Shown one piece after another: positions 1,553 through 16,999 of a stretch of DNA of 18,288 nt. The notes beneath the pieces were generated by a model. That model was given only the letters and a program-made list of their open reading frames with translations. It did no database searches and was not told the DNA's origin. The DNA is from a virus. Its lineage: Duplodnaviria > Heunggongvirae > Uroviricota > Caudoviricetes. How positions within the stretch are numbered: the first letter of the stretch is position 1; each line of letters opens with the position of its first letter. The translations under genes and the position numbers were made by a program. The stretch lies in IMG/VR virus record IMGVR_UViG_2703718771_000014; one strand, 5' to 3'.

Positions 1553-1753
1553 TCACGAGGACTGAAGTTGCTCGCAATTAAAATTTATCAGTTTTACTTT
1601 CTGCTCTCTGGAAACGCCTGCTTCTTTTTTACCTGAGAGCATTTTTTCGCATTCTGATTTGGTTAATTTTGTTTTTGAGTACCTTGTCCAGTTAGTAGGA
1701 GTGCCACCTTCCTTTTCAATAGTGGCGGTAATTTTATACATGAACACCTCCAT
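1553..1753 (-). CDS. Small phage protein, YdaC-like; start ambiguous (ATG at 1813, 1753 or 1741)
   Basis: Track ORF 1553..1813. A GGAGG lies 5 nt upstream of the ATG at 1741 and overlaps the 3' end of ralR. The position between xis and ralR matches the Rac gene order. Confidence 0.55.
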   Translation of the reverse strand: MEVFMYKITATIEKEGGTPTNWTRYSKTKLTKSECEKMLSGKKEAGVSREQKVKLINFNCEQLQSS

Positions 1754-1991: not shown

Positions 1992-3044
1992 TCAGGAGCC
2001 GATATATTCTGGTTTCATATCTGTCAGTGTCGTTTTATACGCCTCATATAATTCACCCAGATGTGGCCGGGCAGCATTCAGCGTATTTTCCAGAGCAGTA
2101 AATTTTTGTTCTGCTTCTGGATCACCTGAAGAAGGTAGGTCATTTATCATCTTCTCGATACGGGCAATAGCATTGAGACGGTGATGACGCTGAACCACTT
2201 TTCCTTTAAGTTCCGTATAGAGAGCGCCAAGTGTATTTTTATGATCTTCCACTTCCTGGCGAAGTGCTGTTGTTTCCCCGGTGCTTTGTGCCTGCTCAAT
2301 ACGTTCACGGAAAGCATCGATCCAGTTTTCCCCGGCATCCTGCTCAATAATTGTTGTTTCACGTTCCGCGCGGCAAGCGGAAGTGTTTTTATGTTCCTGA
2401 ACCGGATTAATGATTTTTTCCTGTGGCTCGTCCAGTTCGTCCCTGGTGTACACTCCAAGAATCACTTCGGGGCAATAAAGGCGCGCCCAGCGTTTCAGCG
2501 CTAGATAGGCAAGCTGCTGGCGAGGATCGTCGGCCCATAGCGTTGAGTTACGTGTTCTGGCCTGCGCCAGAAGTAATTCCAGTACGCGTGGTTTACTTTC
2601 GCCGCGTAGTGTTGCCTGGACACGAACACCGATCCCGTTTTCATCGGCCAGCTTCCAGCCAGGTACACGATATTCTTTCCCTTTGTCGCTCTTCCTGATT
2701 TCAAATTTCCCGATAATTTTTTCCCACGGCCCGAACCAGTCATATTCAATACGCCCGGTTAGCGGCCCACGAGTACTGATTACGGCATTAACCAGTTGCG
2801 CTTCATATCCGAGCACACCATTCACAACGAAAGTTTTCTGAGCTACTGCGTAAGGGTTCATTTGCCACTGCATCGCCTGCATGGTGATGGCCATGCAGTC
2901 TGATGGATTTCCTCGGAGGTGTTCCGGTACAGTAGCCATGCCGGAAGCCATTACCTGGGAAAATGTCTGAATTGCAGCCATGGACTGAGGGCTGAAAACC
3001 GCAACATTAGAGTTAATATTTTCTTGTTGAGTTAATTCGTTCAT
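1992..3044 (-). CDS. Putative single-strand annealing protein, divergent RecT-like, 350 aa, with a predicted C-terminal coiled coil
   Basis: ORF with an AGGAAGG SD. It lies 11 nt downstream of the recE stop, in the slot recT occupies in K-12. The sequence differs from K-12 RecT as I recall it, but the core motif layout (LW..DP..Q..A.KRWAR..P versus RecT PW..HWEEMAKKTAIRRLFKYLP) suggests the same family. Confidence 0.6.
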   Translation of the reverse strand: MNELTQQENINSNVAVFSPQSMAAIQTFSQVMASGMATVPEHLRGNPSDCMAITMQAMQWQMNPYAVAQKTFVVNGVLGYEAQLVNAVISTRGPLTGRIEYDWFGPWEKIIGKFEIRKSDKGKEYRVPGWKLADENGIGVRVQATLRGESKPRVLELLLAQARTRNSTLWADDPRQQLAYLALKRWARLYCPEVILGVYTRDELDEPQEKIINPVQEHKNTSACRAERETTIIEQDAGENWIDAFRERIEQAQSTGETTALRQEVEDHKNTLGALYTELKGKVVQRHHRLNAIARIEKMINDLPSSGDPEAEQKFTALENTLNAARPHLGELYEAYKTTLTDMKPEYIGS

Positions 3045-3055
3045 TGTGTCCTTCC

Positions 3056-6000
3056 TCAGATGCTCAGTGCTTCAAGACGACGAAGATCAAAGTCGTTTAA
3101 TTCGTCGGTATAACTTTCGGTAATCGGTGCTGGCCAGTTGTTTGTCTCCAGGGCTTCGTTTATCTGGCGTAGCGTCCGGCGATATTCCTGTCGACCAAGT
3201 TCCAGGAGTTCCTGCGAGGCTTCCACGACTGCCACCCAGTGATAGCCAGCATCTTTGTTGACGAAGATCCAGAAAAATTTGTCCAGGTTTGCCACATCGC
3301 AATACATTGCGGCGCTGAGGTGATAATCACGCTCAATAATTTCACGGTGCAGGCGATCTTTAAGTCGTTCCTGTCGCACATAACCGAGGCTGACTGACTT
3401 CACGTCAGCGCAAATGCTTTCGTATGGCAGCCGGATTTCGATATCAGGACGGACCCTGATTTCCAGCCCGGTTTCTTCATCAAACCCGAAATAGCTGATT
3501 TCAGATTTGCGATCCGGGTGGTTGAGTAGCCTTGCTGCATCGGTATTGTTTTGCAGTGCCGCGTGAATATTTTTTGCCTGTTCATACATCTCCGGACTGA
3601 TAAACGTTTTCCCGGCATTTTCTTCTTGCTGGCGTTTTTGCCAGTCCTCCAGTGTCACCAGTTCCGGGCGAATTTTCCGTGCGATTTCGGTTAATTGCTC
3701 TTTTGTGCCACTGATGTTGTAAGGCAAAGATTTAGCACGTTCTTTTTTTGCCAGTTCTGGGTCTACAGTTTCAATTTGATCCAGAAGCTGCTCCCGTGCT
3801 CCACTGGTTTTCAACAGAGGAGGGAGGCTTGCGTTGTATTCTTTAATACAGGCTTTCATTGCTGATGCTGTGTGTTTTTCCCCCTCAGGAATACGCCGAA
3901 ATTCCACCGGAAGCGAACCGTAAAGGATGCCTGTTTCTTCGGCCCCGGCACTTACAGACAGTGGCTGTATAAGAGTGCTGTTGTAGCTTTCGATCCACTC
4001 TTTCATCTGCTCTGGTGTCATCAGTGCTGGCAGACTGGCATTGTGTTTTTTAATGATGGCGATCAGTTCGCTAGAAGTAGTAACCACATATTCAGGAACC
4101 GGTACCGGAATGGCATATTCATCAGCGAATTTATCCGTTTCCAGAACATAGCTGTGAATGATCCGCCCACGCAGCAGTGCATCACTTTCCTCGTTCGGAA
4201 TAGTTCCGGCAATGTGCCGTCCGTGGTAATACATCAGGCTGATACGGGCATCCTTCAGCATCGTGCTGCTTATTCCGTTGGCGGAGTGATAAACCTCGTT
4301 CGGGAGGTTTTCATAGCGGCCAGGCTCGAAATATGACGGCCACATGATTTCAGTTGCTACAGGAGCTGACGCTTCACCAGTTTCATCACTGCAATCACGA
4401 TGCGGATCGCTGCCAGCATTCTCATTGTGCGGATGTTCAGCGCCTTCCATTTCCTCCGGATCATTTTCCTTAGCTTCAACCTGATTCTCTTCATCGAATG
4501 TTTCCTGGTATGTTGCGTCGCCCATCACCGCACCACAGTCAGGGCAGTTATCCCCGCCAGTCTGACCGCAGGCATTGCAGACTATTTCCGGTTTCTGTTG
4601 CACTACTGGCTCAGGTTGTTTCACATCCGGGCTGGTTTTTACAGTTTCTGGCGTGTTTTGTTTCGTTTCTGGCTGGTTCTGGTACACAGAGTCGCGAGTC
4701 TGGATCCCCTTTACCCATTTCGGATCGTTCGGGTCGCTAATTCCGTCAACAAATTCACCACGTGATGCAGCAAGCAATTTATCGGCATCGACAGGATTTT
4801 TTGATGGAATGTTTTTCCGGGCTTCATGGAGTTCTGCCCGCAGTTTCTGATATTTCGCATCAACAGAATTTACCTGTGACTGAGCATCCAGCGGCTGCGT
4901 GTCCTGATGATGTTCAGTTGCATCCGGTTCCACTGTTTCAGCCGTTGCCTGTTTATCTGCCATTGCGCAAGATGGTTGCGGTTTTTCTTCACCATCGTGT
5001 TTTCCTTCTTCTGTTACACGCTGCGGCATTGGGGCAGAGGAACGACCGCAGGCAATATCCACGATTTCCGGATCAGGGTTGGCATGATCGGTTTCAATCA
5101 GCACCTTGTTCAGATATTCAGTGACATGCGCAGGGATAACCTCGATCCCAATTGGTGCTTCTTTTACGGACGCAACCACGATGGCGCGGGAATAATCCAG
5201 CCCGCCAGGCATGGTGATGAATTTGTCGCGGAAAACAGAAAAGGGCGGTTTATTTTCAGAGATAATTTCCTCGACACGTTTAGCGTGTGCCGGATGAAGG
5301 TTATAAATGTCCACGTCCATTGAACGGGCCAGGACGCCAGTGGCTACGTCGCGCGCCAGTGACGTCAGATCGTGAACGAAACCTTCGCCGCGATCGGTGA
5401 GGTTCCCGCCGCCAGCATTAGCGCCGGAAGCCGTGCGCGTGATGCGTGAAACACGATTTCCTTTCATCCACTCTTTTGTCAGCAGACCACGATCGGTGTA
5501 GTCTGCGTCCAGGTATGCTTCGAAAAAAGCAGTCATCAGCCCCAGGCTTGAATTGCCTGGATTAGGGAAAACTCTGTCAGTATCACGCACCAGTTTGTGG
5601 AGATCGCGAATTTCCAGCGGGTCGAGCAGGCTGGTTTTGTGGGAAACAGCCAGGGCAGTAACAGCTGGTAGTTCTTCAGCTCGTGCAATGTGTAATGCCT
5701 GGAGTTCGTCGCGTGAAACGTGCGTTACCGGTTTTTCGCTGCCGTGTTGAGCAAGCCAGCGAATGGGCAGCTCCTGACCGGAAATCGGGAGTAGCATATT
5801 CTCCTCAATCTCCGTCATGTCTTCGCCATTAACATTGGTATTGTCAGTGCTGGCTGGTTTGTCCTGCGCAGAGGATGAGGGCGCGATAAATACCATTGTG
5901 ATGCCATCTTCCCCGCCTTTTTTGTAACGGTTGCAGAATTCCGTATCAAATACGCCCTCTGGTGGAAGGTCATCAACAACGGGCAAATTGACGCGAACAG

Positions 6001-6181
6001 GTTTTTTAAAGTCATCTTCATCGTAGCCAGCATCGTCAATCGCAACAGCACCACGGGATATGGCAATGGATAATTTTTTCGCTTCAGCCCAGTAGAAACC
6101 GCCTTTAATACCGAGACGTTTTCTTACTTTGTCATTTTTTGCTTCGTAATACAGTGGGTAAACTTGTTTATCGGTGCTCAT
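3056..6181 (-). CDS. recE: Exodeoxyribonuclease VIII (RecE), 1041 aa
   Basis: Track ORF. From about residue 110 onward ([38 protein letters not shown]...) it is nearly identical to K-12 RecE as I recall it, including the [16 protein letters not shown] segment and the C-terminal nuclease domain. The N-terminus is longer and divergent. Confidence 0.93.
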
Positions 6182-7023: not shown

Positions 7024-7592
7024 AATTATCTCCATTTTTACAAATGAATTTTGTCGATGCGGTGCCTGGTGCCTCCAGGTGACGTTAACCAGTTAACAAT
7101 TAACGCCGGATACAGAGAATCCACCCATAACACTGTTTTTGGTTTTAACTGTTCCGCGTGCGCTTAGCCGCATTCACCGCATCACAAAATTCACTTTAAA
7201 AAGGGCGGCAGAGCAGCCACGGAGTAAAACTGATACCGCCAAACGTCACCAGAAAATTGATAACAGAGGGCGTTGCAGCGGGGTTGTCACTTAAGCGTAT
7301 GGTCAACCTGACAACCCGGTGTCCTCAATGGGGAAGGAATAACCCCGCCATACTTACCGCCGCGCCATTTCGCGGAGTGCCACAACCGGAAGCGCACGTT
7401 CGAAGAAATCTAACGACAAGCCTTCTGAGGGAAAGAGCTTCGCCGTACGCTTTCGCGTTATGCCCTGACTTTTCAGGGAAATATCCTTTCAGTAAACTGT
7501 CAGTACCGGATTCTTATCCGTGTCCGGCGCACGACCACACGTGACAGCGTGTTGGTCTCCATTTTTAACCCAGAACCTCAATGGAGGATAAA

Positions 7593-7802
7593 ATGCCAAA
7601 CAAAAAAAGAAATCCGCTTATTGAAAAACAGATTGAATGCCTGGTAAATCAACTCAGGCAATCAGGGTTATTAAAAACTCATTCAGAGTTGAGGCTCACA
7701 GAATCAGCATTCGACGATAAATTAAATAATGTCCTTTATAATGGCATTATTGATTTTAATCGTTCTGTTGGTCGCCGCGGCCCTGCTGGTGTTTCCTTAT
7801 AA
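7593..7802 (+). CDS. Hypothetical 69-aa protein, convergent with the 212-aa gene
   Basis: The ATG at 7593 is preceded by GGAGGA at 5-nt spacing. The stop codon (7800..7802) abuts the stop of the minus-strand gene (7803..7805). The gene looks AT-rich by eye. No family recognised. Confidence 0.45.
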   Translation: MPNKKRNPLIEKQIECLVNQLRQSGLLKTHSELRLTESAFDDKLNNVLYNGIIDFNRSVGRRGPAGVSL

Positions 7803-8441
7803 TTACCAGTCAATCCAGAGTGGACCGTGTTCAGCGTAAATATAACTGTACACATCCAGATTATATTTGTGGTCTGTTAAGAACAGGCCGCAAATACATG
7901 CCGAAGCTTCCAGTGCAGCGGCTCTGTTACTGAATAACCATGTAGCAACATTCCAGCGTTTTTCTGCATCCCAGTCTTTCTCAAGGCCTGATACCATGAA
8001 GAAACCGTTAGTGTTGCCATCAAATAATTCTGTTTCCAAATTTTTAAGCAATGCCTGATGGACTCTTGCCAGGTATTCCGCCGGAATTTCGCCACGAATT
8101 CTGATGAGATTGTCATAAACAAACATGTTCCCCGCATATGGCGATTTTTCTTTCTTGTTTTTTAAACCAGCATCATGAGCAAACTGATCAATTTCTTCTT
8201 CCGTTGGTTTCGTATTGATGTTTTGCGCTGTCGTTTCTGCAATTTTATTTGCCACACTCTCTGAGTCGTGTTTATTTATAGACGCACAGAAATACAATCC
8301 GGTAAACGCATCGCGCACATTACGAGCCATATTATCAGTGTCTTTTTTCGTTACCGATTCCAATTCAAGTTCGTTCAGACGATGACGAAGTGTGTGTGCT
8401 GCAATCTCCTGGATTGAAGGAGGTAAATCTTTAAATTCCAT
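7803..8441 (-). CDS. Hypothetical 212-aa protein with no recognisable family; downstream gene of the repressor-adjacent module
   Basis: Track ORF 7803..8453. The ATG at 8441 (MEFKDLPPS...) is preceded by GAGG at about 8 nt. There is an 11-nt gap to the upstream small gene. I see no Walker A motif, no predicted transmembrane segment and no familiar nuclease motif. Confidence 0.7.
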   Translation of the reverse strand: MEFKDLPPSIQEIAAHTLRHRLNELELESVTKKDTDNMARNVRDAFTGLYFCASINKHDSESVANKIAETTAQNINTKPTEEEIDQFAHDAGLKNKKEKSPYAGNMFVYDNLIRIRGEIPAEYLARVHQALLKNLETELFDGNTNGFFMVSGLEKDWDAEKRWNVATWLFSNRAAALEASACICGLFLTDHKYNLDVYSYIYAEHGPLWIDW

Positions 8442-8452
8442 CGTCAACCTCA

Positions 8453-8605
8453 TTAGTCGGAGTTTCTTGCTAACCAGCGATGCGCGCCAGCTTCGGTTTT
8501 AAACGATTTGCTTTTGGTATACGTCATGGCGGTGAATGTGCCGTCCTGATTGGGAAACACGCCACATACCAGAGATTCGTTGTTGCCAAGATCGATAGTA
8601 TCCAT
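8453..8605 (-). CDS. Small 50-aa protein (possibly YdaG/YdaF-like), first gene of the module
   Basis: The track ORF starts at a TTG at 8668. The internal ATG at 8605 is preceded by GAGG at 7 nt and gives MDTIDLGNNESLVCGVFPNQDGTFTAMTYTKSKSFKTEAGAHRWLARNSD. Confidence 0.55.
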   Translation of the reverse strand: MDTIDLGNNESLVCGVFPNQDGTFTAMTYTKSKSFKTEAGAHRWLARNSD

Positions 8606-8785
8606 GTTGACCTCATTTCCCCTTAACGCCGGGTGGCGGAACGTTTTATCTACTGCGCTTTGTATCAATCAACAACTGCCGTCATGTTCGTATGCCTCAG
8701 GCTGGCTACTTAGCCCTGTTCAGTGGCTGGATAACTCGAGGTATTGTCCAGCCGTTCTCTGGTGGGGCGTTGTTTGGATATGCTT

Positions 8786-8814
8786 ATTAAACACAATGCG
8801 TTTTCTTATGTCAA
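8786..8814 (-). promoter_or_regulatory. Sigma70-type promoter for the module (TTGACA-17-TTTAAT on the minus strand), flanked by operator-like AACAC-N5-GTGTT sites
   Basis: Minus-strand read: cgtgTTGACAtaagaaaacgcattgtgTTTAATaagc. Operator-like site B (8813..8827) overlaps the -35 edge and site C (8790..8804, one mismatch) overlaps the -10. Confidence 0.55.
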
Positions 8815-8855
8815 CACGAAATGTGTTTTGTGGTGGGTGTCATATGATGATGGTA

Positions 8856-8880
8856 CAAAAAAGCCCGCTGATAGCGGGCT
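8856..8880 (-). terminator. Intrinsic terminator downstream of the repressor gene
   Basis: On the minus strand: AGCCCGC-TATCA-GCGGGCT followed by TTTTTTG, placed 30 nt after the repressor stop. Confidence 0.7.
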
Positions 8881-8910
8881 GATTGGCATATTACTGTGAT
8901 AGCAAGATCA

Positions 8911-9330
8911 TTACTCCGGTGGGGGATTATCTTTAAGCCTGCCTCTCAAATATTTTTCTACATACTCATCGATTTCTTTTAGCCGGACTTCAAATAGCTC
9001 AATCATTCGTTGTTGTTCTGAGCCAGGTAGCTGGTTAAACAACTCAAGAAGTTTTCGTTGGGATTCATTTAACCACAATTCAGAAGATTCCTGTTCTCCA
9101 AATAGGAGCTCAGGAGGAGATATGCCAAGTGCCTTTCCCAATACGACAGCGTCATGCACTCCAACATTTCTGCTGCCCGCCTCATAGTTACCTATACGCG
9201 ATTGCGTCCATCCGCAGATTTCAGCAAGTTTTCCTTGAGATAAACCAAGCTTCTGCCTGCGCTCTTTAAGACGCATTGCAATTTTGTCATTGAGCCTACT
9301 AGCGGCAATTTTTTCGTTTTCTTTTTCCAT
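8911..9330 (-). CDS. Prophage repressor, XRE-family HTH (CI/RacR analogue), 139 aa, no S24 peptidase domain
   Basis: Track ORF with an HTH segment (LGLSQGKLAEICGWTQSRIGNYEAG). It is divergent from the Cro-like gene across a 96-bp region carrying palindromes, followed by its own terminator. It is too short to carry a LexA-like autocleavage domain. Confidence 0.85.
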   Translation of the reverse strand: MEKENEKIAASRLNDKIAMRLKERRQKLGLSQGKLAEICGWTQSRIGNYEAGSRNVGVHDAVVLGKALGISPPELLFGEQESSELWLNESQRKLLELFNQLPGSEQQRMIELFEVRLKEIDEYVEKYLRGRLKDNPPPE

Positions 9331-9426
9331 TGCATCCTTGTATCACGAATCGTGATTTACATAAAACACAAAACAGATTGACCATATAACACAAGGTGTG
9401 TTTAAAATTGTCATCGGAGGTTTTCA
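9331..9426. promoter_or_regulatory. Divergent immunity control region with two distinct palindromes and a candidate Cro-side promoter
   Basis: Perfect 7-1-7 palindrome ATCACGA-A-TCGTGAT at 9342..9356. AACAC-aaggt-GTGTT at 9388..9402. Plus-strand TTGACC (9378..9383), 17-nt spacer, TTTAAA (9401..9406), then GGAGG (9416..9420) and the ATG at 9427. Confidence 0.6.
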
Positions 9427-9669
9427 ATGAACAAAATTTCAACATATCGAAAACAGCTTGGGCTGTCTCAAAGACAACTTGCTGTTCAGTTAGGGTGGAT
9501 ACAAAGCCGACTGGCAAATTACGAAGCAAATTTTCGTACCCCTGGACTAGAGGAGTGCAGAAAAATTGTTTCTACCCTTAATCGGCTTGGCGCTCATTGT
9601 GGACTTGACGATGTATTCCCCCCAGACGGTAAGCATAGCGAAAACAGCATAGGAGCGGTTGATTCATGA
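9427..9669 (+). CDS. Cro-like / YdaS-like XRE HTH regulator, 80 aa
   Basis: Track ORF with a GGAGG SD and an HTH segment (LGLSQRQLAVQLGWIQSRLANYE). It is divergent from the repressor and its stop overlaps the next start (ATGA at 9666..9669). Confidence 0.8.
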   Translation: MNKISTYRKQLGLSQRQLAVQLGWIQSRLANYEANFRTPGLEECRKIVSTLNRLGAHCGLDDVFPPDGKHSENSIGAVDS

Positions 9670-10088
9670 AAATCAGGCATGAGCACATCGAATCAGTGTT
9701 GTTAGCCCTGGCAGCCGAAAAAGGGCAGGCGTGGGTCGCTAACGCAATTACTGAAGAATATCTGCGCCAGGGGGGCGGCGAATTGCCCCTTGTACCAGGC
9801 AAGGACTGGAACAATCAGCAGAATATCTATCACCGTTGGTTGAAAGGTGAAACGAAAGCGCAAAGGGAAAAAATTCAGAAACTGATCCCTGCGGTTCTGG
9901 CAATTCTTCCGCGCGAGCTGCGTCACCGACTCTGCATCTTCGATACCCTGGAACGCCGTGCATTACTGGCGGCGCAGGAAGCGTTGAGTACGGCAATTGA
10001 TGCGCATGATGATGCAGTCCAGGCCGTTTACCGGAAAGCACATTTCAGCGGTGGTGGGTCGCCCGGCGATTCTGTCGTAGTGCATTGA
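9666..10088 (+). CDS. YdaT-like (CII-like fold) protein, 140 aa
   Basis: Track ORF, translationally coupled to the Cro-like gene. The MKI.HEHI start, the C-terminal ...VVH end and the 140-aa length resemble K-12 YdaT as I recall it. Confidence 0.7.
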   Translation: MKIRHEHIESVLLALAAEKGQAWVANAITEEYLRQGGGELPLVPGKDWNNQQNIYHRWLKGETKAQREKIQKLIPAVLAILPRELRHRLCIFDTLERRALLAAQEALSTAIDAHDDAVQAVYRKAHFSGGGSPGDSVVVH

Positions 10089-10165
10089 TTGAAATTGATC
10101 GTGCCGGATTGTTTTGTTCGGTATCAGTTAAATGTAACGCTGCGAGCGTTACAAGGTGAAAACAA

Positions 10166-10954
10166 ATGGCTTCAAACTGGATAAAGCTCGAGGTTATTAC
10201 GCCGGATAAGCCGGAAATATTCAGGCTTGCTGAGATTCTGAATATTGATCCAGATGCCGCATTAGGGAAGGTTATTCGCTTCTGGGCATGGGCGGATCAA
10301 CAAATGATAGACGGTAATGCAGATTGTAACGCTCGCGGCGTTACAAAAAGTGCAATAGACCGCATCACTTTTATGGCTGGTTTTGCTGATGCGTTAATTC
10401 AGGTTGGATGGCTGGTCGAAAATGACGGTGGGCTTTCTCTACCTAACTTTGAACGTCATAACGGAAAAAGCTCTAAAAAACGGGCGGTTACAAACGAGCG
10501 AGTTACAAAAATACGCGAACTGAAACGAAAAGGTAACGCTGGCAGCGTTACACAAACGGATCAAAAAGCGTTACCAGAGGAAGAGGAAGAGGAAGATATA
10601 AATACTGATCTCCCCCTAAATCCCCCTCGCCAAAAACGAGCGTCTAAAAAATTCGAGCCGGAGGCTATCGAGCTGCCTGACTGGTTGCCGGAAACACTCT
10701 GGCATGAGTGGGTTAAGTTCAGGCAGGCATTGCGAAAACCGATTCGAACGGAGCAGGGCGCTAACGGGGCGATACGGGAGCTGGAAAAATTCCGTCAGCA
10801 GGGTTTTACACCTGAGCAGGTGATTCGACACAGCATCGCCAATGAATACCAGGGCCTGTTCGCGCCGAAAGGTGTTCGGCCTGAGACGTTGCTCCGACAG
10901 GTTAACACTGTCTCGTTGCCGGACAGTGCGATCCCGCCAGGCTTCAGGGGGTAA
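10166..10954 (+). CDS. Replication initiation / replisome organiser protein (lambda O-like N-terminal domain), 262 aa
   Basis: Track ORF with an AGGTGA SD. The N-terminus (NWIKLEVITPDKPEIFRLAEIL...) resembles the phage replisome-organiser N domain. It has an acidic EEEEEED linker, internal iterons, and sits directly upstream of the DnaC-like gene. Confidence 0.75.
   Translation: MASNWIKLEVITPDKPEIFRLAEILNIDPDAALGKVIRFWAWADQQMIDGNADCNARGVTKSAIDRITFMAGFADALIQVGWLVENDGGLSLPNFERHNGKSSKKRAVTNERVTKIRELKRKGNAGSVTQTDQKALPEEEEEEDINTDLPLNPPRQKRASKKFEPEAIELPDWLPETLWHEWVKFRQALRKPIRTEQGANGAIRELEKFRQQGFTPEQVIRHSIANEYQGLFAPKGVRPETLLRQVNTVSLPDSAIPPGFRG
10326..10575. repeat. Iteron cluster (GTAACGC-N5-GCGTTAC and GTTAC half-sites) inside the O-like gene; putative replication origin
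   Basis: Inverted repeats at 10326..10344 and 10533..10551. GTTAC half-sites at 10487..10491, 10502..10506 and 10570..10574, followed by GAGGAA repeats and an A+T-rich stretch. A fourth palindrome lies upstream of the gene at 10134..10152. Confidence 0.55.
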
Positions 10955-10960
10955 CGGACC

Positions 10961-13771: not shown

Positions 13772-14016
13772 ATTCATTACGATATGGGAATTCCCATATC
13801 GGGTAAAAACGGTTTGCGGTAAAGCGAGAGTTAAGTAGAATTGCTGCGGGTGCTTGAGGCTATCTGCCTCGGGCATGAACACCAACGGCAGATAGAGAAA
13901 AGCCCCAGTTAACATTACGCGTCCGGCAAGACGCTTAACATTAATCTGAGGCCATATCTATGCTCTACACACGTAGGTTAGCCTCTTACGTGCCGAAAGG
14001 CAAGGAGAAGCAGGCT

Positions 14017-14172
14017 ATGAAGCAGCAAAAGGCGATGCTAATCGCCCTGATCGTCATCTGTTTAACCGTCATTGTGACGGCACTGGTAACGAGGAAAGAC
14101 CTCTGCGAGGTACGAATCCGAACCGGCCAGACGGAGGTCGCTGTCTTCACAGCTTACGAACCTGAGGAGTAA
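14017..14172 (+). CDS. hokD: Hok/Gef-family type I toxin (HokD/RelF), 51 aa
   Basis: AGGAG lies 8 nt upstream of the ATG. The translation MKQQKAMLIALIVICLTVIVTALVTRKDLCEVRIRTGQTEVAVFTAYEPEE matches my recollection of K-12 HokD. The track ORF begins at an in-frame ATG at 13960. Confidence 0.9.
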   Translation: MKQQKAMLIALIVICLTVIVTALVTRKDLCEVRIRTGQTEVAVFTAYEPEE

Positions 14173-16171: not shown

Positions 16172-16197
16172 CTCAATCTGTTATCCGGGGCTATATT
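16168..16197 (+). promoter_or_regulatory. Late promoter candidate (PR'-like): TTGACT-18-TATATT
   Basis: TTGACT at 16168..16173 overlaps the Q-like stop codon. TATATT at 16192..16197. A hairpin (CGCCAG-caaaat-CTGGCG) lies just downstream. Confidence 0.6.
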
Positions 16198-16258
16198 CCT
16201 CACGCGCCAGCAAAATCTGGCGTCGGGATTGGAACCCCGGATAGAGACCGCGACAGAC

Positions 16259-16280
16259 ACACGCCGCGAGCGTGTTTTTT
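16259..16280 (+). terminator. Intrinsic terminator (tR'-like) about 70 nt downstream of the late promoter
   Basis: ACACGC-CGCGA-GCGTGT followed by TTTTTT. Confidence 0.7.
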
Positions 16281-16441
16281 ATTGTCGTATGCACGCGCAC
16301 ATCTGAATTATGGTGGGGCGCATGGGGGAGCTGAAAAGCTCGCCGGTCGGTTTCCCGGTAGTTCCAACCCTGTGCGTCTCACCACCCGATGATTGGAACC
16401 TGACGGTGGTGATAGTTTAGAAACCACCAGAGGGCGTCATT

Positions 16442-16999
16442 ATGACAACTCAAATTTCTGTTGAAACTCTCTCCCCGATCACCCATAACCGGATTCCTGT
16501 TATTACCACCGAACTTTTGGCGCAGCTTTACGGCACTGAGCCGGTGCGTATTCGCCAGAATCATCATGAGAACAAAGTACGCTTCGTTGAAGGGAAACAC
16601 TTTTTCAAAGTTGTTGGTAATGACCTTAAAGAATTGCGGGTAGCTTTAAACTACTCACAAAATCCCATCTCTCCCAAAGCCCGCTCCCTTATCCTCTGGA
16701 CAGAACGCGGAGCAGCCCGCCACGCAAAAATGCTCGAAACCGATCAGGCGTGGGATGTGTTCGAAAAACTGGAAGACTGCTATTTCAGTCAAAAGGATCC
16801 GTCAGCGCCAGTTGCATGCCAGAAAAGTTACGACACGCGAGTTCTCTGTTATCAGCGAGGCGGTGTCACTGTTTCCACAATTCAGTTGCGGGATGATGAT
16901 ATTGTTATTTCCCTTGAGTCATGGCTGGAACTGGCGAGAGCCAATGGTTGGTTTGTTGTTCGCAGAGATAAACTGGTGGAAAGGCTGATGCAGCTTTAA
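16442..16999 (+). CDS. ORF6N-domain antirepressor-like protein, 185 aa
   Basis: Track ORF. The N-terminal motif LAQLYGTEPVRIRQNHHENKVRFVEGKHFFKV resembles the ORF6N consensus as I recall it. It is the first gene after the late promoter and terminator. Confidence 0.65.
   Translation: MTTQISVETLSPITHNRIPVITTELLAQLYGTEPVRIRQNHHENKVRFVEGKHFFKVVGNDLKELRVALNYSQNPISPKARSLILWTERGAARHAKMLETDQAWDVFEKLEDCYFSQKDPSAPVACQKSYDTRVLCYQRGGVTVSTIQLRDDDIVISLESWLELARANGWFVVRRDKLVERLMQL

Follow-up and report, generated by a model that had tools for sequence, protein, structure and literature searches.

The stretch of DNA analysed here, an 18,288-bp window that is a Rac-site lambdoid prophage of E. coli, carries one palindrome, AACAC-N5-GTGTT, both between a repressor gene and a divergent Cro-like gene and on a leftward promoter on the other side of the repressor gene, raising the question of whether one phage regulator governs both places, and what this would mean for the genes behind the leftward promoter. 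An earlier note made from the sequence alone had suggested that the repressor or the Cro-like protein controls both, tying the expression of a gene module to prophage state. Our analysis indicates that the palindromes very probably serve as operators in a lambdoid immunity cassette with a short repressor of the DicA/Gifsy/RacR/PaaR2 type, placed on its early promoters PR and PL (Table 1).

Table 1. Coordinates of the immunity region and left operon in the window; promoters and operators are predictions.
Feature	Position	Strand	Remarks
DicF sRNA	7203..7254	-	Rfam RF00039, 75 bits; terminator 7220-7205
212-aa phage protein, phrog_2151	7803..8441	-	Second left-operon gene; variable cargo gene
DUF1391 (YdfA/YdaF family) protein, 50 aa	8453..8605	-	First left-operon gene; DUF1391 E 7e-29
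PL, predicted early-left promoter of PL/dicBp type	8786..8814	-	TTGACA 8814-8809, 17 nt, TTTAAT 8791-8786; sequence reading
OL1, putative operator	8790..8804		AAAACGCATTGTGTT on the minus strand; one mismatch; in PL spacer, overlaps -10 by 2 nt; matrix rank 3
OL2, putative operator	8813..8827		Perfect AACAC-N5-GTGTT; last TT is the start of -35 TTGACA; top matrix score
Intrinsic terminator of repressor transcript	8862..8880	-	Directly upstream of OL2
Repressor, 139 aa, WP_000410105.1	8911..9330	-	N-terminal HTH_3 and short DicA-like C-terminal helical region
OR3-like putative operator	9342..9356		ATCAC-GAATC-GTGAT (ATCACGAATCGTGAT); 12 nt upstream of repressor ATG; matrix rank 4
OR2-like degenerate candidate site	9365..9379		AACAC-AAAAC-AGATT (AACACAAAACAGATT); 23 bp from each neighbour
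PR-type predicted promoter of Cro-like gene	9378..9406	+	TTGACC 9378-9383, 17 nt, TTTAAA 9401-9406
OR1-like putative operator	9388..9402		AACAC-AAGGT-GTGTT; fills PR spacer, overlaps -10 by 2 nt; second-best matrix score
Cro-like HTH_3 protein, 80 aa, WP_001033914.1	9427..9669	+	Recognition helix QSR..NYE as in repressor
YdaT, functional CII equivalent	9666..10088	+	YdaT-box-like TTGATTCATGAAAATCAG at 9659-9676 across start codon

Putative operators and promoters on either side of the repressor gene

The three palindromes lie exactly where the earlier note had placed them: AACACGAAATGTGTT (8813-8827, with gaaat as N5) and AACACAAGGTGTGTT (9388-9402) match AACAC-N5-GTGTT perfectly, and AACACAATGCGTTTT (8790-8804) differs by one mismatch. 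Allowing for at most one mismatch, they are the only matches in the 18,288 bp, against 0.62 expected, and at least three matches arose in 3 of 200 shuffles, so this mildly unusual count, only slightly above chance, is by itself weak evidence. Their location, the scores of a weight matrix and their conservation across 77 related regulatory regions nevertheless mark the palindromes as non-random. All three fall within the two intergenic regions flanking the repressor gene, some 400 of the 18,288 bp, where by simple arithmetic three random hits would coincide with a probability of about 1e-5. The weight-matrix scan of the prophage that the earlier note had proposed, here with a matrix trained solely on sites from other genera, placed four good sites at ranks 1 to 4 in the window (8813, 9388, 8790 and 9342, in that order), and three sites scoring at least 13.6 occurred in none of 500 null sequences. 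A literature search for the motif string gave only unrelated archaeal TrmB papers.

The palindrome at 9388 does sit on the spacer and -10 hexamer of the Cro-side promoter, as proposed, but the single operator envisaged there becomes a right operator of three putative sites with the addition of two that had been missed (9342 and 9365), all spaced at 23 bp within the 96-bp gap between the repressor and Cro-like genes. The site at 9342 has the CAC-N5-GTG core of the other palindromes and is invariant among the E. coli variants, and among 17 representative variants, 15 have a counterpart 26-27 nt ahead of the repressor ATG and two have it at -20 and -8; at 9388, the N5 spacer alone varies among relatives. 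The OR2-like sequence at 9365 is a poor match, the weakest part of the arrangement, and might not be a site. It falls outside the top 14 matrix hits and is therefore kept only as a degenerate site supported by position: its last TT opens the PR -35 hexamer, in the register of OL2 at PL, and the equivalent position is degenerate in other genera too. An alternative -10 hexamer for PR is TAAAAT at 9403-9408, transcription from PR would be expected to start near 9413 on the plus strand, and the PR layout is kept in other genera. The repressor's own promoter had no confident location; the candidates are TACAAG at 9342-9337, from which the mRNA would be almost leaderless, and hexamers around 9360-9366.

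The left operator comprises two putative sites 23 bp apart, which agree with the proposal of one palindrome at the -35 edge and one on the -10 of the leftward promoter, each overlapping its hexamer by 2 nt; nothing motif-like was present 23 bp to either side (8767 and 8836), where a third site might be sought. The arms of OL2 are invariant among relatives of the same helix class, which carry eight different N5 spacers, and OL1 has a counterpart in loci of Citrobacter and Enterobacter; in E. coli variant L010, a change within OL1 leads away from the consensus. Transcription from PL is predicted to start near 8779 on the minus strand, and the layout of PL after the repressor terminator recurs in L003, L004, L006, L013, L057 and L072.

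PL and PR share a common layout: the final TT of one site belongs to the -35 hexamer, and a second site takes up the spacer and reaches with its own final TT into the -10 hexamer. At the sequence level, the putative operators of both promoters overlap both hexamers, so that bound protein would exclude RNA polymerase, as in lambdoid OR and OL. Both promoters were read by eye and then compared with the layouts conserved in other genera; a consensus promoter scan called neither, because TTTAAT and TTTAAA do not have the A at -10 position 2 that the scan requires.

Covariation of putative operators with repressor and Cro-like protein

The comparison drew on related loci, which gave 77 distinct regulatory variants. 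Of these, 76 have two or more CAC-N5-GTG sites beside the repressor start and 74 have one or more within 200 bp after the repressor stop; elsewhere in those loci the motif is no denser than chance, at 0.20 per kb. The N5 spacers differ freely between variants, but the arms do not change. The outer dinucleotide (AA, TT or GA/GT) tracks the recognition helix of both proteins, OR and OL being always alike: repressor helix GW[TAV]QSR accompanies AACAC sites, GWSG[AS]SR and GWSAASR accompany TTCAC or CTCAC, and GW[AS]T[AG]SR accompanies GACAC, GTCAC or GCCAC, with Cro-like helices also co-varying with site type. In L007, an unrelated helix-turn-helix domain is joined to the same C-terminal domain, and TAAGC-type palindromes occupy both places. 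Operator specificity thus appears to shift with repressor and Cro together, identically at OR and OL, which is the pattern that defines heteroimmunity.

These relatives might form a natural specificity series on a single scaffold, a tentative reading in which an unchanging CAC-N5-GTG core is flanked by an outer dinucleotide that depends on the first two or three residues of the recognition helix: Q-S-R in both repressor and Cro with A-A, T-A-S-R in the repressor and R-S-R in Cro with G-A, and G-A-S-R in the repressor and Q-P-R in Cro with T-T. Within the window, half-site position 2 is A at OR1 and OL and T at OR3, a difference that under the same reading may cause repressor and Cro to occupy these sites in opposite orders. 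Were this so, recognition would follow a simple, readable code, and the relatives would supply short repressor-operator pairs orthogonal to one another; the covariation series is a tidy resource for specificity studies, although conceptually expected.

The repressor appears to belong to the short DicA/RacR/Gifsy/PaaR2 type, its 139 aa lying within the range of about 125-160 aa, and it is homologous to DicA of K-12 (29% identity over 129 residues, E 2e-15), the one characterised short repressor used for this comparison. Its Pfam matches are HTH_3, HTH_31 and HTH_19 only; likeness to the 434, P22 and lambda repressors is confined to the helix-turn-helix region, and a C-terminal motif, LP.SEQ...RLKEIDEYVEKYL, is common to relatives and partly to DicA. 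An autocleaving repressor of the lambda cI or LexA type would be recognised by an S24 domain with an Ala-Gly cleavage site; Pfam detected no Peptidase_S24 domain in this short protein, which does not appear to be of that type. Since this domain is lacking, the repressor is probably inactivated not through RecA-stimulated cleavage but by an antirepressor, as in Gifsy and Qin (PMC3121763, PMC10448788). Related loci also have a hairpin and T-run where the terminator of the repressor gene lies here. No similarity to DicC was detected for the Cro-like protein, which is therefore not a DicC homologue.

The earlier note had left the choice between repressor and Cro-like protein open as an either/or; regulation by the phage's own regulator holds, but both proteins probably use the putative operators, because they are 45% identical over the helix-turn-helix region, including the QSR..NYE helix. 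It is improbable that one of them is the sole user while the other binds different DNA. Such a division would be consistent with the L057/L059 class, which has the window's Cro-like helix (GWIQSRLANYE), a different repressor helix and sites of the TTCAC, CTCAC or ATCAC type, so that the two proteins need not have identical preferences. Against it stand, besides the helix shared in the window, the parallel change of both helices in the GACAC and TTCAC classes, the 96-bp intergenic region, in which no second family of repeats was present, and the overlapping DNA footprinted by both CP-933P proteins (PMC8630535).

The left operon and its predicted regulation

The prophage genes are ordered int, xis, ralR, recT, recE, kil, dicB', cargo gene, DUF1391 gene, repressor, Cro-like, ydaT, ydaU, ydaV. 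With a ydfA-family first gene and DicF behind the leftward promoter, the left operon appears to be of the dicBF type, and in RM9872 a dicB pseudogene is annotated just downstream of DicF. The 212-aa gene is presumably part of what the earlier note called the module. Neither its product nor a 69-aa protein on the opposite strand had PADLOC or Pfam matches, and their PHROGs are families without known function only. The RNA fold of the operon leader (8600-8780) was no better than shuffles (z = -0.05), with no Rfam match. Transcription from PL probably continues into kil, recET and int; the DicF terminator may stop much of the transcript, leaving the reach of repression uncertain.

The immunity cassette, with differing genes behind PL, was found in 153 E. 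coli genomes; about 3% of the complete genomes of this species carry it, O145, O157, O111 and O55 strains among them. These distributions bear on the claim that the module is specially wired to the switch, with a leftward promoter dedicated to the DUF1391 and 212-aa genes as, for example, defence or toxin cargo sensing prophage state, which seems very unlikely even though the two genes are the first transcribed from that promoter, the DicF terminator lies about 600 bp further on, and the 212-aa gene is of the variable cargo kind. The same promoter and operators stand in other prophages before Rha, sieB with ydaF, or a 102-aa hypothetical protein in the cargo slot, and in Citrobacter and Enterobacter phages before unrelated downstream genes, and the 212-aa protein matches no defence family. 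Because the same operators precede differing genes, they belong to the repressor cassette, which moves as a unit, its promoter and operators travelling with the repressor gene; the supposed module-specific wiring gives way to an ordinary OL/PL. The wider proposal, that one phage regulator acts at the switch and at the leftward promoter so that the module follows prophage state, is supported by the shared layout of PL and PR, the conservation in 74-76 of 77 variants, the covariation with the helices and the precedents of Qin and CP-933P.

From conserved and co-varying sites in register with promoter-like hexamers, we infer how binding, order of occupancy, cooperativity and read-through might combine in an immunity cassette of this kind. 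In the lysogen, repressor dimers would occupy OR1 and, cooperatively, the weak OR2, occluding the spacer, -10 and -35 of PR and keeping the Cro-like gene, ydaT and the replication genes off. Repressor on OL1 and OL2 would occlude PL and silence the DUF1391 gene, the 212-aa gene and DicF and, should transcripts extend past the DicF terminator, dicB', kil, recET, xis and int as well. OR3, with its variant ATCAC half-site, would probably serve Cro-mediated shut-off of the repressor, autoregulation by the repressor, or both. Upon inactivation of the repressor, PR and PL would both fire, and the Cro-like protein, with the same recognition helix, would then take the same sites.

With PL predicted to be repressed in the lysogen and to fire upon inactivation, the module would be early-lytic cargo and not lysogen-expressed. 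The prediction for DicF and the DUF1391 and 212-aa genes is thus silence in the lysogen and expression upon induction, which bears on the question of whether this cargo works during lytic growth or already in the lysogen, where it could for example serve defence; any cargo behind PL, here the phrog_2151 protein, would be automatically timed to induction.

The least likely explanation, that a host transcription factor binds the sites or that they are a regulator-free by-product of a PL/PR promoter duplication, would be consistent with the raw match count, just modestly above chance, and with the roughly 60% identity by eye of PL and PR over 46 nt in similar register, but it can hardly account for OR3, which has the same core outside any promoter copy, for invariant arms around varying spacers, or for half-site types that switch with the phage's own helix-turn-helix domains, wholly so in L007; on this covariation evidence, host-factor and chance explanations were rejected.

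Comparison with known systems

In its divergent repressor and Cro-type genes, with several putative operators between them that recur on the leftward promoter, the locus resembles a lambdoid immunity region. It shares with lambda (and 434 and P22) a tripartite OR between repressor and cro, operators also on PL, a spacing of 23-24 bp and the overlap with -35 and -10 hexamers. The lambda consensus, T-ATCAC-CGCCG-GTGAT-A, has the ATCAC-N5-GTGAT geometry seen at 9342, and helix 3 of both lambda cI and Cro also begins with Gln-Ser. Unlike lambda, the window has no S24 autocleavage domain, two clear OL sites instead of three, and no N gene, the first PL gene being the DUF1391 gene.

The Gifsy-1, Gifsy-2 and Gifsy-3 repressors of Salmonella (GfoR, GtgR and GfhR) belong with it to one broad family of short lambdoid repressors that are not cleaved, a likeness drawn from the family description; DicA and RacR are reportedly members too, the reported hosts are E. 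coli, Citrobacter, Klebsiella and Enterobacter, and heteroimmune members recognise different operators (PMC3121763).

The PaaR2/YdaS/YdaT system of CP-933P in E. coli O157:H7 likewise combines a short repressor, a Cro-like HTH protein, YdaT and several equally spaced OR operators. PaaR2 and YdaS footprint OR, and both repress PL933P, a PL analogue with matching -35 and -10 hexamers whose OL1-3 resemble the OR operators (PMC8630535). The CP-933P operators are 18-bp palindromes of the GTTTAGTAA type, unlike the consensus found here, and its repressor gene heads a toxin-antitoxin operon (paaA2-parE2), whereas the repressor gene of the window stands alone and ends at a terminator. The YdaT box, to which the sequence at the ydaT start codon is similar, has been described for Rac and CP-933P (PMC11879457, PMC9986795).

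The dicA-dicC region of Qin in E. coli K-12 matches the window in the order and orientation of a ydfA-family gene, a short repressor and a divergent Cro-like gene, and in having DicF and dicB in the left operon. DicA represses dicBp, with operators in the dicA-dicC region and at dicBp (PMC10448788), and binds Oc (PMC3441716); as in the window, the leftward promoter and the divergent intergenic region thus each carry palindromic operators, one of which runs from the spacer into the -10 (PMC10448788; Oc in PMC3441716). Qin differs in its operator, TTAG(T/C)-N4-(G/A)CTAA as against AACAC-N5-GTGTT, in its regulators (the repressor here being just 29% identical to DicA and the Cro-like protein unlike DicC), and in that the window has YdaT as CII equivalent and an early region that, with recET, int and replication genes, is largely intact. 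The locus is thus a textbook lambdoid arrangement, real but ordinary, that leaves the understanding of lambdoid regulation unchanged and carries a new operator specificity: this cassette can now be assigned a promoter map and a concrete operator, AACAC-N5-GTGTT, of which OR3 shows the variant ATCAC-N5-GTGAT.

Predicted operators and promoters of the immunity region

Our analysis supports reading the AACAC-N5-GTGTT palindromes as predicted operators, wired as OR and OL ordinarily are in lambdoid prophages. The earlier note had proposed that one regulator may act through this palindrome at both the lytic switch and the promoter of a "module" (presumably the DUF1391 gene and the 212-aa gene), tying the module to prophage state. 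Shared control of the two promoters is supported, and a special link between module and switch is not, the common lambdoid arrangement taking its place: the "module promoter" is the head of a dicBF-type early-left operon and corresponds to PL of lambda and dicBp of Qin.

The prophage occupies the Rac attachment site, adjoining ttcA, and the part searched, the immunity region at 8400-9700, has 99.8% identity to E. coli O145 RM9872. Its repressor is 29% identical to K-12 DicA over most of its length (E 2e-15), a domain search found no peptidase domain in it, and by sequence the immunity region is assigned to the DicA/RacR/Gifsy/PaaR2 type.

Features of the prophage, with operator sites and repeats
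Feature	Coordinates	Strand	Remarks
int	1-1236	minus	
xis, ralR		minus	between int and recT in gene order
recT	1992-3044	minus	
recE	3056-6181	minus	
ydaE, kil, dicB pseudogene		minus	between recE and DicF in gene order
DicF sRNA	7203-7254	minus	Rfam, 75 bits
DicF terminator	7220-7205		ahead of kil, recET, xis and int for transcription from PL, some of which may pass it
212-aa protein	7803-8441	minus	without assigned function; phrog_2151
DUF1391/YdfA-family gene	8453-8605	minus	
OL1	8790-8804		AACACAATGCGTTTT, one mismatch
OL2	8813-8827		AACACGAAATGTGTT
Terminator	8862-8880		between DUF1391 and repressor genes
Repressor	8911-9330	minus	139 aa, HTH_3
OR3	9342-9356		ATCACGAATCGTGAT
OR2, degenerate	9365-9379		AACACAAAACAGATT
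OR1	9388-9402		AACACAAGGTGTGTT
Cro-like gene	9427-9669	plus	80 aa, HTH_3; divergent from repressor gene
YdaT-box-like inverted repeat	9659-9676		TTGATTCATGAAAATCAG
ydaT	9666-10088	plus	
ydaU, ydaV		plus	after ydaT
GTAACGC-N5-GCGTTAC	10134-10152, 10326-10344, 10533-10551		perfect 19-bp palindromes

OL1, OL2 and OR1 lie exactly where the earlier note placed them, and the 18,288-bp window has no further match when up to one mismatch is allowed. Their count alone is mildly unusual (0.62 expected; three reached in 3 of 200 dinucleotide shuffles), and site function is therefore argued from position and comparison. Relaxing half-site position 2 revealed OR3, which a repeat finder independently clustered with the 8813 and 9388 sites and which is separated from the downstream repressor ATG by 12 nt; with OR2 the total rises from three to five. 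Start-to-start spacing is 23 bp within both the right operator (9342, 9365, 9388) and the left (8790, 8813).

A scan of the whole window, which the earlier note had called for, was made with a weight matrix whose training sites all came from Citrobacter, Enterobacter and Raoultella loci and none from E. coli. The sites at 8813, 9388, 8790 and 9342 ranked first to fourth (19.5, 18.5, 13.6 and 11.3), and in 500 first-order Markov null sequences three sites scoring at least 13.6 never occurred together. This cross-genus matrix gives OR2 no score, so only its position speaks for OR2.

In transcriptional orientation, PL is AACACATTTCGTG[TT]GACA-TAAG-AAAACGCATTGTG[TT]TAAT and PR, the promoter of the Cro-like gene, is AACACAAAACAGA[TT]GACC-ATAT-AACACAAGGTGTG[TT]TAAA. 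Sites and hexamers stand in identical register in both: the last two bases of the distal site are the first two of the -35 hexamer, while the proximal site occupies the 17-nt spacer and runs two bases into the -10 hexamer, and the overlaps first described are therefore correct. The sequence gave no confident placement of the repressor's own promoter. The leader from PL to the DUF1391 gene (8620-8790, ~170 nt) is nearly identical across prophages with different downstream genes and, up to ~8762-8790, common to prophages with other immunity regions. A hairpin lies within it at 8725-8753, and the leader as a whole folds no better than shuffles (z = -0.05).

Conservation of the sites and covariation with recognition helices

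Repressors of 53-68% identity from other genera have CAC-N5-GTG palindromes at the same places. Most of the 17 representative variants have their two clearest sites ~73 and ~26 nt upstream of the repressor ATG, and one or two further sites lie past the repressor terminator, on a TTGAC -35 hexamer and in its spacer. At least two sites occur in the 160-bp right-operator zone of 76 of the 77 distinct regulatory variants, and 74 of the 77 have one or more in the 200 bp that follow the repressor stop codon; in the rest of these loci the density is at chance level (0.20 per kb). At the OL2 position, eight different N5 spacers were found within the window's recognition-helix class, with arms invariant.

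The outer dinucleotide of the half-site tracks the start of the repressor recognition helix and is always of the same type at both operators. Helix GW[TAV]QSR.GNYE goes with AACAC, GWSG[AS]SR.ANYE or GWSAASRLANYE with TTCAC or CTCAC, and GW[AS]T[AG]SR.GNYE with GACAC, GTCAC or GCCAC. Cro-like helices covary likewise (Q-S-R with AACAC, R-S-R with GACAC, Q-P-R with TTCAC), and in the window the helix-turn-helix regions of the repressor and the Cro-like protein are 45% identical, QSR..NYE included. The exception is the L057/L059 class of IMG/VR loci, in which the repressor helix differs (GWSGSSRIANYE), the Cro helix is of the window's type (GWIQSRLANYE) and all operators carry T at half-site position 2; from this pattern, the window's Cro-like protein may favour the ATCAC of OR3.

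In a Phytobacter locus (L007), the repressor keeps its C-terminal domain, and both its helix-turn-helix domain and Cro are unrelated. Its right operator has TAAGC-N5-(G/A)CTTA-type palindromes, and its downstream TTGACA promoter three more, 23-24 bp apart. A host factor, chance or neutral promoter duplication as the source of the sites is hard to reconcile with helix-site covariation that extends to this swapped domain. The covariation is the pattern expected of heteroimmune lambdoid cassettes, and the series adds modest value beyond the operator finding itself.

Genes behind PL and a proposed circuit

The immunity cassette was found in 153 of 5,426 complete E. coli genomes, at 90-100% identity and in full every time. 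Substitutions are confined to N5 spacers and inter-site linkers, bar a change inside the 8790 site of one variant; no half-site of 8813, 9342 or 9388 varies. Genes directly behind PL vary among the carriers: the DUF1391 gene and 212-aa gene in the window, the DUF1391 gene and a Rha-family gene in one O157:H7 strain, a 44-aa ORF and ydaF, then sieB on the opposite strand, in two strains, and a 102-aa hypothetical protein in one. It is therefore the repressor that the promoter and operators accompany, rather than the "module".

The slot at 7593-8441, from the DUF1391 gene to the dicB'/kil genes, is variable cargo, holding the 212-aa gene and a 69-aa opposite-strand gene (phrog_4274) in the window and, in other prophages with the same cassette, Rha, sieB or the 102-aa ORF. 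PADLOC gave no match for any of this cargo. The N-terminal 50-75 residues of the 212-aa protein are common to four other PHROG families.

In the lysogen, repressor dimers would bind OR1 and cooperatively OR2, and likewise OL1 and OL2, blocking RNA polymerase at PR and PL. Both promoters would fire once repressor was lost, probably through an antirepressor, by analogy with Gifsy and Qin, where this route has been demonstrated (PMC3121763, PMC10448788). The same sites would then be taken by the Cro-like protein, probably OR3 first, to shut off the repressor gene. Because PL would be silent in the lysogen and fire on repressor loss, we infer that the DUF1391 gene, the 212-aa gene and DicF give early-lytic products. 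YdaT may boost repressor synthesis from a PRE-like promoter: the YdaT-box-like repeat, one mismatch from TTGATT-N6-AATCAA, spans the Cro-like gene stop and the ydaT ATG, the equivalent place to that described for Rac and CP-933P (PMC11879457, PMC9986795), which implies a CII-like PRE circuit.

Rfam matches above gathering score were DicF, RalA, sok, isrK, C4 antisense RNA and c4-a1b1, in regions 7203-7254 (-), 1557-1735 (+), 13848-14022 (+) and 16191-16389 (+). The isrK/C4 cluster, directly upstream of a 185-aa ORF (16442-16999), may be part of a control module for an antirepressor or antiterminator, which would bear on how the window's non-cleavable repressor is inactivated.

To the right, the ydaU allele differs, encoding 262 aa in the window (10166-10954) versus the 289-aa YdaU of RM9872; in the comparison of 10090-10960 with L001, the window is not identical to RM9872 outside the immunity region. 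Sequence comparison thus places a mosaic joint immediately right of ydaT. Of the three GTAACGC palindromes, ~200 bp apart, one lies shortly before the ydaU start (10166) and the others inside the gene; their arms are invariant and their N5 varies in L009-L013, which have the same ydaU allele, and they are absent from L001 and L008, which have a different one. Candidate functions for them are as replication-initiator, origin or autoregulatory sites.

Comparison with known systems

The ATCAC-N5-GTGAT geometry and the Gln-Ser opening of helix 3 resemble lambda cI and Cro, a likeness that we take as a lead only. In Qin, dicA deletion derepresses dicBp 22-fold (PMC10448788) and DicA binds the palindrome Oc (PMC3441716); in our search the K-12 sequence showed Oc and related palindromes in the corresponding positions. 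In CP-933P, both PaaR2 and YdaS give footprints on the right operator and repress the PL933P promoter with its OL1-3 (PMC8630535), and RacR of Rac has multiple operators (PMC11879457). The OR/OL design has already been tested experimentally in close relatives. A text search of the literature for the AACAC-N5-GTGTT motif found no earlier description, and what is new here is only this specificity and its relatives.
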